From IMG/VR virus record IMGVR_UViG_3300030339_000006: DNA of 64,000 nucleotides, one strand, 5' to 3'. Both the position numbers and the translations under genes were made by a program. Positions 7,656 through 38,850 of this stretch are shown here, piece after piece. Under the pieces are notes generated by a model, which was given only the letters and a program-made list of their open reading frames with translations, made no database searches and was not told the origin of the DNA. Source of the DNA: a virus. How positions within the stretch are numbered: the stretch's first letter is position 1; each line of letters starts with the position of its first letter.

Positions 7656-7743
7656 GGACCGATAGTTTAACGAGCCAGAGCTCGAAGGGAAACGCCCAGG
7701 CGCCAAATCTGGGAGGTGAGGTGAAAGTCCTCAGAGTCCGCCA
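7656..7743 (+). ncRNA. atypical tRNA-like RNA with hairpin inserted in D-loop
   Basis: GTTT/AAAC D stem enclosing CGAGC-CAGA-GCTCG, CCCAG/CTGGG arm, TGAGG/CCTCA T arm, GCCA end. Confidence 0.6.
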
Positions 7744-7746
7744 AAC

Positions 7747-7827
7747 ATACCTATCGTCTAACTAGGACGCTGCTGTAGCCGCATGTGCTTCAGGGAAATG
7801 CAGGTTAGACTCCTGCTGGGTATACCA
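7747..7827 (+). ncRNA. tRNA-like RNA with non-canonical anticodon arm
   Basis: ATACCTA/TGGGTAT acceptor, GCAGG-TTAGACT-CCTGC T arm, ACCA. Confidence 0.65.
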
Positions 7828-8812: not shown

Positions 8813-9079
8813 ATGAAACTCACTCTGAAACAAAAAGGCCTTCGCCAATTCACCGTCCTGTTCCACCGTAAGAACGTCCACTCTTTCTATCTGCCGGAAG
8901 ACGAATCGCTGGCCTACGACCGTATCTACCAGATTCTCGATGAGACCGCCCCAACGCAGGACCCGGTAGACTTCTTCGATGGCATGCATGACGCCGGCAA
9001 CTCCCTGTTCCGGGCCTTCCGGGATAGACATCCGACGTCGTTCTACTGCGGGGCGGTGTGTCTCACTCTGGAGAAGTAG
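8813..9079 (+). CDS. hypothetical protein
   Basis: AGGAG RBS; ends in TAG. Confidence 0.6.
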   Translation: MKLTLKQKGLRQFTVLFHRKNVHSFYLPEDESLAYDRIYQILDETAPTQDPVDFFDGMHDAGNSLFRAFRDRHPTSFYCGAVCLTLEK

Positions 9080-9080
9080 T

Positions 9081-9587
9081 ATGCTCGAACACCTGCTTAG
9101 TCGTCACTATGACCCCGCTCGTTACCCGACGCAGTGGATCACCGACAACCAACTCGTCGTTCCGCTCTTTGATTTCATCGGGCGGCTTCGTGGCTGCCTG
9201 ACCTACACCCGAGATGCCCCGAAGGAGCACGAGAATCCCCGCTTGAAGCGGTATCTTCCTCGAGCACCGGCAGGGTATCAACCCCTCTGGGGTACTGAAC
9301 TCCCGGTGAAAACCGGAGTCGTTTTCCTGACGGAATCCATCTTCAAGTCCGCTTCGCTGCACGCCCTGGGGTATGACTCGTGGGCGGTCTGTTCGTCGGC
9401 CCTGTCGGATCCTCTCTACCAGCAGCTCATGACCCTGCCCTACCAGTTCGTCTGTCTGGGCGACGATGATAAAGCCGGTCGGGAGCTTGCCCGCTCGTTA
9501 AAGTACGGCGCCACCTCAAGGGACTTGGATGAGTTGACCGTCCCGGAGCGTCTGGCGGTGATAAAACAATTTGACTTCCTTTTTTGA
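9081..9587 (+). CDS. minimal TOPRIM-domain (DnaG primase-like) protein
   Basis: VVPLFD..G.L.G, KRY, FLTESIF, GDDDKAG, DLDE. Confidence 0.75.
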   Translation: MLEHLLSRHYDPARYPTQWITDNQLVVPLFDFIGRLRGCLTYTRDAPKEHENPRLKRYLPRAPAGYQPLWGTELPVKTGVVFLTESIFKSASLHALGYDSWAVCSSALSDPLYQQLMTLPYQFVCLGDDDKAGRELARSLKYGATSRDLDELTVPERLAVIKQFDFLF

Positions 9588-9599
9588 TTCCCTTAAACT
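9571..9599 (+). promoter_or_regulatory. sigma70-like promoter for tRNA cluster
   Basis: TTGACT-17-TAAACT immediately before tRNA-Tyr. Confidence 0.65.
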
Positions 9600-9608
9600 T
9601 CAGTCACT

Positions 9609-9690
9609 GGGGGATTGGCAGAGCGGTCGAATGCGCCTGACTGTAAATCAGGTATCCCACACGGTGGTTCAAATCCATCATCCCCCACCA
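9609..9690 (+). tRNA. tRNA-Tyr(GUA)
   Basis: CT-GTA-AA loop, ACCA. Confidence 0.9.
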
Positions 9691-9691
9691 T

Positions 9692-9766
9692 TGGAGTGTA
9701 GCCAAGCGGAAAGGCACTGGTCTCTGAAGCCGGTATGCGGTGGTTCGATCCCACCCACTCCAGCCA
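9692..9766 (+). tRNA. tRNA-Gln(CUG)
   Basis: U1-A72, CT-CTG-AA loop, GCCA. Confidence 0.9.
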
Positions 9767-9768
9767 TC

Positions 9769-9854
9769 GCAGGAATGATGGAAAGTAGACATAGGCATCG
9801 TCGGATGTCTTGCCGGTTGGCATTGGGAGGTTAGAGTCCTCTCTTCCTGCACCA
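9769..9854 (+). ncRNA. tRNA-Leu-like RNA with anticodon loop replaced by tetraloop
   Basis: GCAGGAA/TTCCTGC, AGGCATC-GTCG-GATGTCT, TGCC/GGCA variable arm, T arm, ACCA. Confidence 0.7.
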
Positions 9855-9858
9855 CTTT

Positions 9859-9939
9859 TGAAGAAGATAGTCGGACTGGTTGCACCAGGCGGAAAATTAG
9901 CAGACATTGGGTTCGAGTCCCTACTTGCTATCTTCTTCA
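9859..9939 (+). ncRNA. long-stem RNA carrying a T-loop arm
   Basis: TGAAGAAGATAG/CTATCTTCTTCA 12-bp stem enclosing GGG-TTCGAGT-CCC. Confidence 0.55.
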
Positions 9940-9948
9940 CCTAACGAT

Positions 9949-10023
9949 TGGGGTTTAGTTTAGTTGGTAAAACACCGGGCTTTGATCCCGGTATCGGGGG
10001 TTCGATCCCCTCAACCCCTGCCA
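9949..10023 (+). tRNA. tRNA-Gln(UUG)
   Basis: CT-TTG-AT loop, GCCA. Confidence 0.9.
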
Positions 10024-10441: not shown

Positions 10442-10451
10442 TAATGTGAGA

Positions 10452-10524
10452 AAGACAAGTAGCTCAACTGGTTAGAGCATAATCATACCCGATTAGTGTT
10501 GGGGGTTCGAGTCCCCCCTGTCTT
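10452..10524 (+). ncRNA. tRNA-like RNA / pseudo-tRNA with 6-nt anticodon loop, no CCA
   Basis: Canonical D arm and T arm; TAATC-ATACCC-GATTA. Confidence 0.65.
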
Positions 10525-10555
10525 AGCTTTAAAATCTCCCTATTAGGAGAACTTC

Positions 10556-15801: not shown

Positions 15802-15886
15802 GGGGCGGTGGCGAAATTGGTAGACGCACCGGATTTAGGTTCCGACGGGGAAACCCGTGAGAGTTCGAGTCTCTCCCGCCCCACCA
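15802..15886 (+). tRNA. tRNA-Leu(UAG)
   Basis: TT-TAG-GT loop, variable arm, ACCA. Confidence 0.9.
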
Positions 15887-15968
15887 GAGTTCATATGGCT
15901 ACATACCTTTGCGTCCGAACCTCGCCAGAGGTCGAGTCTACTCTGTCGGTGTGGCGCCATATGAATTC
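15887..15968 (+). ncRNA. long-stem structured RNA between tRNAs
   Basis: GAGTTCATATGGC/GCCATATGAATTC 13-bp stem with internal hairpins. Confidence 0.5.
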
Positions 15969-15971
15969 TTC

Positions 15972-16562: not shown

Positions 16563-16723
16563 GGGTAGAAGTTTCCACCGCGGCCGTGGCGTTCCGGAGC
16601 AAAACGGCGGTAGGTTCCTTAGGAGGTTCAGGAAACACTTTCAGGATTAGAGACTGAGTAGGCCGGCCGGCTGGAAGGTTGATAGACTGAGAGATCGGGG
16701 TTCGAATCCCCTTCTACTCGCCA
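16563..16723 (+). ncRNA. 161-nt tRNA-scaffold RNA with expanded D and anticodon arms
   Basis: GGGTAGA/TCTACTC acceptor, GTTTCC/GGAAAC, CTTTCAG/CTGAGAG, GGGG-TTCGAAT-CCCC, GCCA. Confidence 0.7.
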
Positions 16724-30485: not shown

Positions 30486-30622
30486 CGGTGGCTGGTGGTG
30501 GTGTGAACCCTGCCAGAGGAACCACTGTGAAGGGGGTGGCTGCCCGGTCACCTCTCCGCCGATCGACGAGGCCGACCTGGAACGTCGTATTCGTAAGCTG
30601 CAAGATCACTTTAAGGGTAAAA

Positions 30623-31327
30623 ATGAAGATCATCAGCAAGTTCCATGACTACTACGATACTGTCGCCGCCCACGGGGTGAGCGATGGGTATTACTTCCGC
30701 ACGCCGTCCATCCATCCTATCAGCGGGGCCAAGTATGAACCCTTCCTGGGGAACGGGATGCGACTGGGCAGCGAGTTTGACTACTCCGTGATTCTCTTCT
30801 GCGGGCAGGTCTTCCCGTGTATCCAGGTGAAGACCCTTCAGGAGCGTTACACGGTAACCCGTGGAGAGTTCTCGATCTTCAACATGGAGACCTACGACAA
30901 GTACCAGAAGTTGGTGCGGGAAGACCTTGGCTTCAAGGGCTCCCCGCGTTGGCCGGCCTTCCGCTCCAAGGCGGATTGGTTTGACCAAGTGAAGACCGAC
31001 CGTGACTCGATGGAGAAATACTTCGAAGGTCTGAACTCCCTGGACTCCGGCTTCATCCACCGGGAGCTGAACGCTCCGATCATCCACGTGCGTCACGAAC
31101 CTTCACGTAACTCCTACGGTCGCCGGGTCTTCGAGGCCAACCCTCAGTTGAAAGGCCTGGGGTTCCAGTCGGTCAAGGATCCCTTCACGGCGTACCAGGA
31201 GCTGGACTCTTACCTCTCCGGTGTGATGGGCGTCGAGACCCGGCCACCGGTCGAAATCTCCGACGTGCACCGTTTGGAAGGCCACGGGTTTGACAAGAAG
31301 ACTTCCTTCCGTAAAGGCAAATCGTAA
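30623..31327 (+). CDS. conserved phage hypothetical protein
   Basis: MKIISKFHDYYD...NPQL...F....DP..AYQE...HGFDKKTSFR. Confidence 0.75.
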   Translation: MKIISKFHDYYDTVAAHGVSDGYYFRTPSIHPISGAKYEPFLGNGMRLGSEFDYSVILFCGQVFPCIQVKTLQERYTVTRGEFSIFNMETYDKYQKLVREDLGFKGSPRWPAFRSKADWFDQVKTDRDSMEKYFEGLNSLDSGFIHRELNAPIIHVRHEPSRNSYGRRVFEANPQLKGLGFQSVKDPFTAYQELDSYLSGVMGVETRPPVEISDVHRLEGHGFDKKTSFRKGKS

Positions 31328-32750: not shown

Positions 32751-33970
32751 TGAATATTCCTGAGTACTACCTGAACCTCCTGGGCGGCTGGAACGGCGCC
32801 GACGATGAGACCCACTACGGGGCCCGCCCTATCCTGGCCGCCATCATGTCCCACTACAAAGTCCGTGCGACGACGAAAACCGACCTGGTCCGTGAGATGG
32901 GTCTCGGGGCTACTCCGGGCTTCCTGCTCGGTCAGCGTGAGACCACGATGTCGTCCTACTACGTGAAGAACTACGAGCACCGCCGCTTCTGTTCTCGCTT
33001 GGTGGAATTCAAGAAGGTCGGCCGTACGTTTAACTACCTGCTCAACTGGGACGTGGTCAGCGACACCGACTTCAACATGGGTTTCTATTCGCCGAACTGG
33101 TCGTCAATCGCTCAGGTATATTGGTGGGGCCGCTTGATGTTCGGTCACAACGTGATTCCGGAGAGCGTGATTACCGTTCTGCGTTCCCGTATGGTCGTCA
33201 AGAATGACCGTCGGGACGAGTACCGCAACGCGTACAACCCGTTTGTCGTGCAGTTCCTTCGGGATAATGACCTGATGCCGACGGGGAATCATCACCCGGA
33301 AGCACGGGCCGGTAACTCGGTGCTGGACCGTGAAATCCCTTACTGGGAAGTCATGCTGTCCTTCGCATGCTCGATTGCCACTACGAACAACGTCGCCGGG
33401 TACTACTCGTCACTGGCGTCCCTCTCAAGAGTTCTTATCCCGCGTCCCGTCGATCATGATTCAGCTTCCGGTATGAAGATTGACTGCGTACAGGATGCCG
33501 AACGCAAATTAGATCCGTACTTCAAGTGGTGGGATCCTTCGAGTAGCCGTCCGCTGAACGGTTCGTGGCAGTACGGTATCGGTCAGCCGTCGATTGAGCG
33601 GGCACTGCGTCCTAATGGCTTCCCATCGAATGTCCGTGAGATGATCCCACTGTTTATGGGCCACCTTCACATGACCCCTCTAGAGGAGCAGCGTAACAAC
33701 TACAAGACACCGTACGTTGGCTACGACGTTAATATGTCCGGCCGTAATAAGTACGCGTATGCTCTTTCCTGCCTTCTGTACGAATTCGGCCTGTTGGTGA
33801 ACAACACAGCTCTCTTCGACCTGTCCATCCTGAAGCGGATTCGTGAAGAGAAAGAGTGGGATGATGCAGGTATCATTGCCGCGGCAGAGGGTCTATCCAT
33901 GCTGGGTATCAAGAACCACACCATCCATCGTATCGTCGGGTTTAATATCGAGCGTCAGAATCAGGTATAA
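32747..33970 (+). CDS. hypothetical protein (407 aa)
   Basis: Long ORF with phage codon bias. Confidence 0.75.
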   Translation: MMNIPEYYLNLLGGWNGADDETHYGARPILAAIMSHYKVRATTKTDLVREMGLGATPGFLLGQRETTMSSYYVKNYEHRRFCSRLVEFKKVGRTFNYLLNWDVVSDTDFNMGFYSPNWSSIAQVYWWGRLMFGHNVIPESVITVLRSRMVVKNDRRDEYRNAYNPFVVQFLRDNDLMPTGNHHPEARAGNSVLDREIPYWEVMLSFACSIATTNNVAGYYSSLASLSRVLIPRPVDHDSASGMKIDCVQDAERKLDPYFKWWDPSSSRPLNGSWQYGIGQPSIERALRPNGFPSNVREMIPLFMGHLHMTPLEEQRNNYKTPYVGYDVNMSGRNKYAYALSCLLYEFGLLVNNTALFDLSILKRIREEKEWDDAGIIAAAEGLSMLGIKNHTIHRIVGFNIERQNQV

Positions 33971-38049: not shown

Positions 38050-38850
38050 ATGAACTATCATCAGGGTCAAATTGACGCACGCGTTGCTCTGCTGGATGTT
38101 ATCTATAAGGTGGATCCCCTGATCGCTGGGGATATCATCAATAAAGCCGAAATGGCCGTCACCGGGACGCCGGAGTATCTGCAGGGTTTCAGTGAGTACT
38201 GTGACAGCAAGTGGCGTGAACTCAAACTGGATGGGCCGCGGGTAACCCACGACGAACTGGTGAAGGACTTCGGTATCGCCGGTACGCACCGCCGTCTGTT
38301 CAATGCTCGCCGCCTGGCTCAGGATTCCCATGAAGGGCAGTGGCGTAAAGGAGCGGAAGAGCCGTACTTCAATCACGTCTATCGCGTGTCCCAGTCGGTG
38401 GCAAACTACCTGGCCTTGAAGGGAATGACCTTCGCCTTCGAGCGGCACTCCGTGGACATGATGATTGCGGCGTTGTTGCATGACGTGGTCGAGGACTGCG
38501 ACGTTACGCTGGATGAAGTCCAGAGCCTGTTCGGCCTGCGGGTTCGTACCTGGGTAGATGGCTTGACGCACATCATGGTTGGTGTCAACCGGGCGGACCG
38601 GGAGTATAAGACGCGTCAGAAACTGATGGCGGCGCCGTGGGAGGTGAAGTTGATCAAGTGCTTTGACATCTATGATAACGCGAAGAGCATGGCGATCGAT
38701 GATCCCGGCTTCGGCGTTCTGTGGTATCAGGAGAAGTTGGAACTGGTGAGAGAAGGGTTCCTGGCAGAAATGCCCGCGTTAGTGCGAGATCTCGTCCAGG
38801 GAACCCTGACTATGGGTCACGCTCTTAGCTTAGCACTAACTAAGAAATAG
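38050..38850 (+). CDS. (p)ppGpp hydrolase-like HD protein (small alarmone hydrolase / Mesh1 type)
   Basis: A...HEGQ.RK...EPY..H, AALLHDVVED, V..LT, K..D..DN. Confidence 0.85.
   Translation: MNYHQGQIDARVALLDVIYKVDPLIAGDIINKAEMAVTGTPEYLQGFSEYCDSKWRELKLDGPRVTHDELVKDFGIAGTHRRLFNARRLAQDSHEGQWRKGAEEPYFNHVYRVSQSVANYLALKGMTFAFERHSVDMMIAALLHDVVEDCDVTLDEVQSLFGLRVRTWVDGLTHIMVGVNRADREYKTRQKLMAAPWEVKLIKCFDIYDNAKSMAIDDPGFGVLWYQEKLELVREGFLAEMPALVRDLVQGTLTMGHALSLALTKK

Follow-up and report, generated by a model that had tools for sequence, protein, structure and literature searches.

What use could a phage make of a leucine transfer RNA (tRNA) that almost certainly cannot read codons? The question is raised by X1, an 86-nucleotide (nt) tRNA-Leu-like gene with an encoded CCA at positions 9769-9854 on the plus strand (+) of a 64,000-nt stretch of DNA from the virus record IMGVR_UViG_3300030339_000006. 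This whole stretch is called the window here, and positions are those of the window unless another contig is named. The window belongs to a peat-soil phage and is present in about 20 peat metagenome runs. Its tRNA array comprises 24 genes called by ARAGORN, and X1 lies between tRNA-Gln(CUG) and tRNA-Gln(UUG). The original prediction, made from the letters alone, had placed a tRNA-Leu-like RNA with a tetraloop instead of an anticodon loop at this site, and that observation was confirmed. On balance, the sequence comparisons described below suggest that X1 is probably a functional gene kept by selection, whose RNA mimics a class II leucine tRNA without decoding.

The fold of X1 and its two departures from a class II tRNA

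X1 reads in full GCAGGAA-UG-AUG-GAAAGUAGA-CAU-A-GGCAUC-GUCG-GAUGUC-U-UGCC-GGUU-GGCA-UU-GGGAGG-UUAGAGU-CCUCUC-UUCCUGC-A-CCA, and the complete cloverleaf was both the minimum free energy (MFE) and the centroid structure in RNAfold, with a fold energy of -33 kcal/mol and z = -3.1; none of the shuffles was as stable (0/200). The MFE fold begins with an acceptor stem of 7 base pairs (bp). Next come a D arm (3-bp stem, 9-nt loop), a stem of 7 bp under a GUCG cap and a variable arm (4-bp stem, 4-nt loop), and the T arm, A73 and the CCA follow. The acceptor stem pairs GCAGGAA (9769-9775) with UUCCUGC (9844-9850), and all 7 of the 7 pairs are identical in the three versions of X1 that were found, namely those of the window, of the IMG/VR contig L005 and of a contig from sequencing run X22. 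A73 (9851), which is invariant in the three versions, precedes the CCA (9852-9854). U8, G9 and the Leu-type D arm (stem AUG/CAU, loop GAAAGUAGA) occupy 9776-9792, the sealed 'anticodon' arm 9793-9810 (position 26 at 9793, position 44 at 9810), the long variable arm (UGCC, loop GGUU, GGCA, then UU) 9811-9824, and the T arm (6-bp stem GGGAGG/CCUCUC, loop UUAGAGU, A56 at 9833) 9825-9843, all on the plus strand. Alignment with true tRNA-Leu genes showed that X1 has U8, G9, A14, A15, the GUAGA motif of the D loop, a 4-bp variable stem and A73-CCA, and that the D-arm motif (U8, G9, A14, GUAGA) is common to those genes. The Leu-type D arm, the long variable arm and the A73-CCA that had been read from the letters are therefore present both in the sequence and in the MFE fold. 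Furthermore, X1 has the capacity to form a tRNA elbow: the cloverleaf is its MFE structure, a G is present in the D loop, and the T loop carries U54-U55 and A58.

X1 was not called by ARAGORN and gave no match to the Rfam tRNA model (RF00005) at E values up to 10, as might be expected of a hairpin-rich spacer that resembles a tRNA by chance. Such a resemblance has next to no probability in our assessment, given that the fold has z = -3.1, that the T loop, A73-CCA and the Leu-type D arm occur all together, and that base pairs covary. In addition, R1, a covariance model built from X1, scored X1 at 106-113 bits, with 113 bits for the window copy, and the copy in another phage is conserved within this range. 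The L005 copy, the covariation and the R1 scores already refute a chance origin.

X1 departs from a canonical class II tRNA in two places. The first is the loop, which has 6 nt (CGUCGG) and not 7, with G at position 33 and not U33. C32 (9799) and G38 (9804) form a Watson-Crick pair, kept in all three versions, that closes a tetraloop cap (GUCG, 9800-9803) on the 5-bp anticodon stem (9794-9798 with 9805-9809). The 7-bp stem capped by GTCG that had been described from the sequence holds for its cap and not for its length: the conserved helix has 6 bp, and the seventh pair is 26:44 (9793:9810), which lacks conservation (A-U, G.A and G.U in the three versions). The loop itself reads CGUCGG, CGACGG and CGACAG (common form CGNCNG), and no anticodon-like triplet is conserved in the caps GUCG, GACG and GACA.

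The second departure, which the original prediction did not mention, is a conserved G:C pair at 9825:9843 that lengthens the T stem to 6 bp and gives an acceptor/T branch of 13 bp (7/6), in place of the 12-bp (7/5) branch of a canonical elongator tRNA. The branch is read as 13 bp because the extra T-stem C is a gap in every true tRNA-Leu aligned, because the best match of X1 in the Rfam clan is tRNA-Sec (22.6 bits, sub-threshold), and because ARAGORN called X1 only when a loop base was added and the extra pair was deleted, either edit alone being insufficient. The same double correction was needed, in silico, for a call of the L005 copy.

Could the short loop nevertheless decode? X1 might be an unusual frameshift-suppressor tRNA, with a 6-nt loop that decodes shifted or two-base codons, and it may be said for this idea that the array tRNA at 10452-10525 also has a 6-nt loop and that the same locus in relatives has loops of 6, 7 and 8 nt. 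However, X1 lacks U33, its loop is closed by the conserved C-G pair at 32/38, the would-be anticodon is GUC/UCG in one and GAC/ACG in the other of two phages that are 96% identical, and a 13-bp branch is atypical of elongator tRNAs; a frameshift suppressor is very improbable. The earlier view of X1 as non-decoding is instead borne out by the 6-nt loop without U33, the Watson-Crick 32:38 pair and the difference in 'anticodon' letters between the 96%-identical phages, and X1 is almost certainly unable to read codons. X1 may also be immune to anticodon nucleases, as had been proposed, which we only infer.

Occurrence of X1 and evidence for selection

Five IMG/VR relatives of the window phage were fetched via the neighbouring 258-amino-acid (aa) protein, which was also found, at 92-94% identity, in two Logan contigs (P0001 and P0002). 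The sole GenBank relative is Salmonella phage Arash, in which core genes have about 74% nucleotide identity and the tRNA region is syntenic. One of the IMG/VR relatives, the 40.6-kb contig L005 (IMGVR_UViG_3300013105_000038), carries a copy of X1 between tRNA-Phe and tRNA-Gln (L005:3295-3381), and a third version was found in a contig of run X22, a 2022 biofilm metagenome; this contig is about 96% identical to the window, with six differences inside X1. In exact-pattern scans of IMG/VR, the 3' 21-mer of X1 matched the L005 contig only, whereas the 5' 17-mer gave 11 matches, of which one is the L005 contig and ten are chance matches: nine of the ten had no R1 match and the other, L032, reached 12.9 bits and appears to be coding. 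The 18-mer of the stem-loop gave two chance matches only, both in coding DNA. There was no match to the 21-mer in GTDB genomes or to X1 in E. coli genomes, a scan of five enterobacterial jumbo phages with R1 found no X1, blastn against GenBank phages returned only the T arm of a Caulobacter-phage tRNA-Leu, and a metagenome scan with the neighbouring protein found no closer relatives. By all the searches made, X1 is, as judged from its sequence, a separate small family.

The position of X1 was then compared among these phages. In the window, 2 nt (UC) lie between the CCA of tRNA-Gln(CUG) and G1 of X1, and 5 nt between the end of X1 and a further uncalled element, X2. In four of the five IMG/VR relatives and in Arash, the corresponding site holds Tyr-Phe-Gln(UUG) without X1. 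When L005 was compared with its close relative L004, the X1 copy appeared as an 89-nt indel with the direct repeat TGCACCA at its borders, a sequence with which tRNA-Phe and X1 both end, and the junction 'CCA-UC-GCAGGAA' is identical in L005 (after tRNA-Phe) and in the window. Because of the indel with its direct repeat, the shared junction and the absence from relatives, X1 behaves, on this comparison, as a cassette that is gained and lost.

To this extent X1 could be a decaying tRNA-Leu pseudogene, a functionless passenger of the array derived from a decoding tRNA through the loss of one base from the loop and the gain of a base pair. Turnover of phage tRNA arrays is fast, X1 is present in L005 and absent from L004 with the TGCACCA repeat at the junction, it is missing from five complete relatives, and further odd tRNA-like pieces are found in the same arrays. 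A decaying gene, however, would not be expected to have all helices intact in three versions with compensatory changes, to conserve both of its deviations, to have a body that is more conserved than that of working tRNAs, or to change its D loop and T loop in a coupled manner. We therefore regard a pseudogene as unlikely, and the evidence on these points is as follows.

In the alignment of the three versions of X1 (A5), 26 of 26 base pairs are standard in every version, while controls with slid partners pair in 45-58% of cells. The pair 9798:9805 occurs as U-A, C-G and G.U (three pair types) and the pair 9797:9806 as A-U, A-U and G-C; two pairs have thus changed on both sides, and two further pairs vary one-sidedly to G.U. 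The 4-bp stem of the variable arm is kept in all versions, with one pair being U-A or U.G. Because a column-shuffle control is weak with three sequences, random substitutions were simulated, and all X1 pairs were kept in 1.7% of the simulations with 6 changes and in 0.14% of those with 10 changes.

The changes are also unevenly placed. When the window copy of X1 is compared with that of L005, identity is 96-97% over the first 24 nt and the last 30 nt and 69% over the 32 nt in the centre; seven canonical tRNAs of the same two arrays are 75-88% identical. Between the window and the run X22 contig, five of the six differences in X1 fall in the 18-nt sealed arm (5/18 positions), compared with 3.8% over 9400-9975; tRNA-Tyr and X2 have no listed differences. 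Only two changes separate the body of the window copy from that of L005, namely the D loop, where GG in L005 is G in the window, and position 56, where C in L005 is A in the window (the D arm of the L005 copy has GAAAGGUAGA). With the single G read as G18 and the next U as position 19, we infer that the G19:C56 pair has been swapped for U19:A56 in the window copy. Positions 19 and 56 are able to pair in both copies, as G:C in L005 and, under the assumed register, as U:A in the window. Because both body changes fall on the partners of one tertiary pair, the L-shape itself appears to be under selection.

A conserved tRNA shape might also be of use in cis, as a processing or stability element that recruits RNase P and the 3' trimming enzymes, the released RNA having no role of its own. 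X1 is packed tightly among tRNAs (its spacers measure 2 and 5 nt), its most conserved parts are the acceptor/T branch and the CCA, which are the parts read by RNase P, and a precedent exists in the t-elements of plant mitochondria (PMC1920247). However, the neighbouring true tRNAs already supply such sites every 75-90 nt, relatives that lack X1 have the same neighbours directly abutting, and neither A73 nor a Leu-type D arm nor upkeep of the 19:56 pair would be required of an element of this kind. A processing element is accordingly an improbable explanation, to about the same degree as a pseudogene. Taken together, these data argue, with somewhat better than even confidence, for X1 as a selected, tRNA-shaped, non-decoding RNA of Leu type, an assessment that excludes any downstream role.

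Charging with leucine and possible roles

After X1 itself, R1 gave its best scores to the tRNA-Leu genes of phage CcrSC (41.7 bits) and T4 (41.5 bits) and to the window's own tRNA-Leu(UAG) (41.4 bits), with 29 bits for T5; tRNA-Ser genes reached at most 38 bits, leaving a small margin of Leu over Ser, and tRNA-Tyr genes at most 22 bits. The identity set of leucyl-tRNA synthetase (LeuRS), as listed in PMC2377443, consists of A73, U8:A14, G18:U55 and a Watson-Crick 19:56 pair; its nucleotides are present in X1 and the pairings are presumed. Kinetic data for the LeuRS of Aquifex aeolicus (PMC2377443) support the original prediction in its premise that bacterial LeuRS largely ignores the anticodon: relative kcat/Km was 1.70 for a tRNA-Leu with positions 35-37 deleted (delta35-37, a 4-nt loop) and 0.45 with the anticodon arm deleted. 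In the same system, A73 mutants of tRNA-Leu gave 0.007-0.02, the G19C mutant was not measurable, and the double mutant G19U:C56A gave 0.54 (PMC2377443). By analogy, X1 looks like a natural counterpart of tRNA-Leu variants that are still good LeuRS substrates, and from its sequence the chance that the host LeuRS leucylates it may be put at about even.

In the mechanism that we propose, X1 would be transcribed inside the phage tRNA array and excised like the neighbouring tRNAs, given that the 7-bp acceptor stem, the T arm and the encoded CCA are all retained. The RNA would fold to the tRNA L-shape, with the elbow held by D-loop/T-loop pairing, as the coupled loop change suggests. Its codon-reading end would be disabled, the 6-nt loop without U33 and the C32-G38 tetraloop being unusable by the ribosome. 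Because everything that bacterial LeuRS is known to read appears to be present (A73, U8:A14, G18:U55, 19:56, A15 and U48 as Levitt partners, and a regular acceptor helix), the host LeuRS would probably load X1 with leucine, and X1 would then act through its acceptor/elbow half.

The pattern of conservation appears to fit best with an accessory RNA that is gripped at its top half, because the acceptor and elbow are frozen, the lower arm is free but paired, the cassette is sporadic, and the array holds other tRNA-like RNAs. The likeliest role, offered tentatively, would be to engage a tRNA-Leu-gripping protein as a competitor or decoy, the protein being either a host tRNA-directed toxin or LeuRS itself. 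A carrier of leucine for a non-ribosomal reaction is less likely than a decoy and would be a rather doubtful assignment. The more specific suggestion of a donor for L/F-transferase, made with the original prediction, found little support: the preferred leucyl donor of the E. coli enzyme has G3:C70, A4:U69, C72 and C68 (PMC4105747), and X1 has C72 and C68 only, with A3:U70 and G4:C69 instead of G3:C70 and A4:U69.

In a more elaborate and distinctly improbable version of the decoy, leucylated X1, which the sealed loop and the 13-bp branch would exclude from the ribosome, would decoy a host toxin that acts on the acceptor half of (leucyl-)tRNA, and an HD_4 hydrolase would recycle the damaged RNA. 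Acetyltransferase toxins or CCA-end-modifying enzymes would be the candidates, and the rapid change of the sealed arm would record an arms race against a nuclease or sensor of the host. An open reading frame (ORF) with an HD_4 domain (PF13328, E = 7e-11), which has the fold of RelA/SpoT-type alarmone hydrolases, is located at 38050-38850 (+) of the window, and it may be relevant where toxins of the host modify tRNA ends or produce alarmones. Bacterial Schlafen was considered as the target of a decoy and was rejected; the published enzyme cleaves the tRNAs for Lys, Ala and Met in their anticodon arms, with no specificity for Leu.

It should be noted that a number of points weigh against X1 being a functional gene of this kind. 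Only three versions are available, two of which are 96% identical overall, and the run X22 version comes from one contig with a depth of about 5, with one further difference within 9690-9975 that could not be placed. In the column-shuffle control, 34 of 500 shuffles reached the observed values. The body could be nearly identical in distant phages because the cassette was transferred laterally in recent times and not because of constraint, the U19:A56 reading holds only if the D loop has shifted in register, and the absence of X1 from five complete relatives in the R1 scan (four from IMG/VR, and Arash) marks it as dispensable. With regard to expression, no RNA run was found among the sequencing runs that contain the window stretch. 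The 13-bp branch shifts the elbow one pair from the CCA end and could prevent charging by LeuRS, an enzyme that grips the one as well as the other. As for a partner, none of the 20 window ORFs scanned against Pfam encodes an enzyme that uses aminoacyl-tRNA, no aminoacyl-tRNA transferase, synthetase or tRNA repair enzyme was found in about 30 ORFs with Pfam or PHROGs, and a presence/absence comparison of flanking ORFs found no gene confined to carriers of X1.

The non-decoding mimic that we favour would be an unusually clean case, as it differs from a working leucine tRNA by two small conserved changes only. It contrasts a frozen, enzyme-facing half with a codon-facing half that evolves fast and is always paired, and its elbow pair appears to be a natural counterpart of the G19U:C56A swap, with which a laboratory tRNA could still be charged. 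X1 makes the purpose of phage tRNA mimics directly testable, through charging, binding partners, and deletion on hosts with tRNA-directed defence. If charged, X1 would be a natural viral aminoacyl-RNA made solely for non-ribosomal use.

Neighbouring elements of the array

The genes immediately upstream of X1, tRNA-Tyr(GUA) and tRNA-Gln(CUG), occupy 9609-9766 (+) and were called by both ARAGORN and Rfam. A consensus scan placed a promoter-like site (TTGACT-17-TAAACT) at 9571-9599 (+), ahead of a sub-array of Tyr, Gln(CUG), X1, X2 and Gln(UUG); the count of such sites is not above that in shuffles and the position alone is suggestive, and the sub-array is presumed to be co-transcribed. At 9690/9691 of the window, between tRNA-Tyr and tRNA-Gln(CUG), the run X22 contig carries about 80 extra bases (coordinates 1-286 and 367-657). 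A tRNA-Phe follows tRNA-Tyr in relatives, the window is without any tRNA-Phe, and the insert may be a tRNA-Phe gene. Further upstream, a primase-like ORF of 202 aa (8979-9587, +) aligns with the central part alone of a primase profile of 435 positions; the corresponding match in jumbo-phage relatives is split over two or three annotated ORFs, and the primase gene appears, from these matches, to be fragmented across the group to which the window phage belongs.

X2, the second uncalled element, lies directly after X1 at 9860-9945 (+) and has a fold z of about -3, with a 12-bp terminal helix GAAGAAGAUAGU/GCUAUCUUCUUC, a T-arm-like hairpin (GGG-UUCGAGU-CCC) and an end that is ACC and not CCA. It had no IMG/VR match by exact 21-mer and was absent from the aligned relatives. 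A tRNA gene at 10451-10528 (+), at a conserved site before the gene of the 258-aa protein, has a 6-nt loop (AUACCC) and no encoded CCA. Its counterparts in relatives (L004:3895-3974, L006:3896-3971, L008:3897-3972 and L003:2848-2923) have conserved acceptor, D and T arms and a hypervariable anticodon arm, and are called as '(ac)', '(tt)', '(caaa)' and Trp(cca); X1 shows this pattern too, with a frozen body and a free anticodon arm.

Other tRNA-like pieces were observed elsewhere in the arrays. Two elements that end in CCA lie between tRNA-Asp and tRNA-Ser(GCU), at 7656-7745 and 7747-7827 (both +). The former is conserved in 5/5 of the IMG/VR relatives, and the latter, which has the acceptor AUACCUA/UGGGUAU, a T loop UUAGACU with A56, and A-CCA, is clear in the window only. 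Between tRNA-Met and tRNA-His, at 16656-16723 (+), there is an acceptor-plus-GCCA candidate with the stem GAGUAGG/UCUACUC and the T arm GGGG-UUCGAAU-CCCC. In L005, an insert of about 70 nt between tRNA-Tyr and tRNA-Phe (L005:3146-3214) has a 7-bp helix (GUCAGUC/GACUGGC), a G-CCA end and an internal hairpin (CCGAG-GGAA-CUCGG); its fold is not better than that of shuffles, and it may be a mini tRNA mimic. Lastly, the 85-nt spacer from tRNA-Leu(UAG) to tRNA-Thr (15887-15971, +) is bounded by a 10-bp inverted repeat, UUCAUAUGGC...GCCAUAUGAA, and contains the motif GGUCGAGUC; Arash has a second tRNA-Leu, tRNA-Leu(UAA), beside Leu(UAG).

Comparison with known systems

A literature search of incomplete coverage found no published description of a phage tRNA-Leu mimic with a sealed anticodon. 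The closest known relatives of X1 in design are class II tRNA-Leu genes (RF00005), among which the window's tRNA-Leu(UAG) at 15802-15886 the tRNA-Leu of T4 and the tRNA-Leu(UAG) of T5 belong to the best non-self matches of R1, at 29-42 bits. X1 shares with them the 7-bp acceptor stem, U8, G9, the 3-bp D stem, the GAA...GUAGA loop, the long variable arm, the T loop, A73 and the encoded CCA; X1 differs in its 6-nt, U33-less, tetraloop-closing loop and in the extra G:C pair of its T stem, and its sequence identity to the phage's own tRNA-Leu is low.

tRNA-Sec is the classic tRNA with a 13-bp branch. X1 resembles tRNA-Sec and the allo-tRNAs in its long variable arm and non-7/5 branch, with 13 bp in both X1 and tRNA-Sec; however, the branch of X1 is 7/6 and not 8/5, 9/4, 8/4 or 9/3. 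Allo-tRNAs, which have 8/4 and 9/3 branches, have been reported in part from phage tRNA clusters and from peat and soil data (Mukai et al. 2017, PMC5389517). Assignment of X1 to tRNA-Sec (RF01852) was rejected, as it scored 22.6 bits against a gathering threshold of 47 and has A73 and not G73, a 3-bp and not a long D stem, and no anticodon where tRNA-Sec has UCA. The engineered Aquifex tRNA-Leu variants delta35-37 and G19U:C56A (PMC2377443) resemble natural features of X1, but these are laboratory constructs in the tRNA of another organism and are without the extra T-stem pair.

Among cellular RNAs, the tRNA-Other of Bacillus cereus (a pseudo-tRNA, PMC3399842) and the tRNA-like domain of tmRNA are similar to X1 in being tRNA-shaped, chargeable or protein-bound, and free of anticodon decoding. 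Both are unrelated to X1 in sequence; tRNA-Other keeps its anticodon loop, whereas the tmRNA domain is without an anticodon arm and has G3:U70 where X1 has A3:U70. That X1 is itself a tmRNA was considered and rejected, since ARAGORN found no tmRNA in the window.

The final comparison is with stable RNAs of phages T4 and T5. The T5 record (NC_005859) lists RNA1 (30501-30644) and RNA2 (32959-33083) as 'tRNA-like stable RNA with unknown functions', and the T4 record lists rnaC and rnaD (species 1 and 2 RNAs) as 'small, stable RNA' beside tRNAs. These RNAs have been annotated for decades and their purpose is unexplained. Like X1, they lie inside a phage tRNA array and have tRNA-like ends and no usable anticodon, and T5 RNA1 carries a Leu-type D arm, GGAAUUGGUAGAC. 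They are, however, 119-144 nt long, with large inserts that replace the anticodon region, whereas X1 is tRNA-sized; R1 matched only true tRNA-Leu genes in the T4 and T5 RNA regions, which indicates that X1 is not homologous to the stable RNAs. Altogether, X1 belongs with the tRNA-like RNAs of T4 and T5 by position and design, yet it is far closer to a real tRNA.

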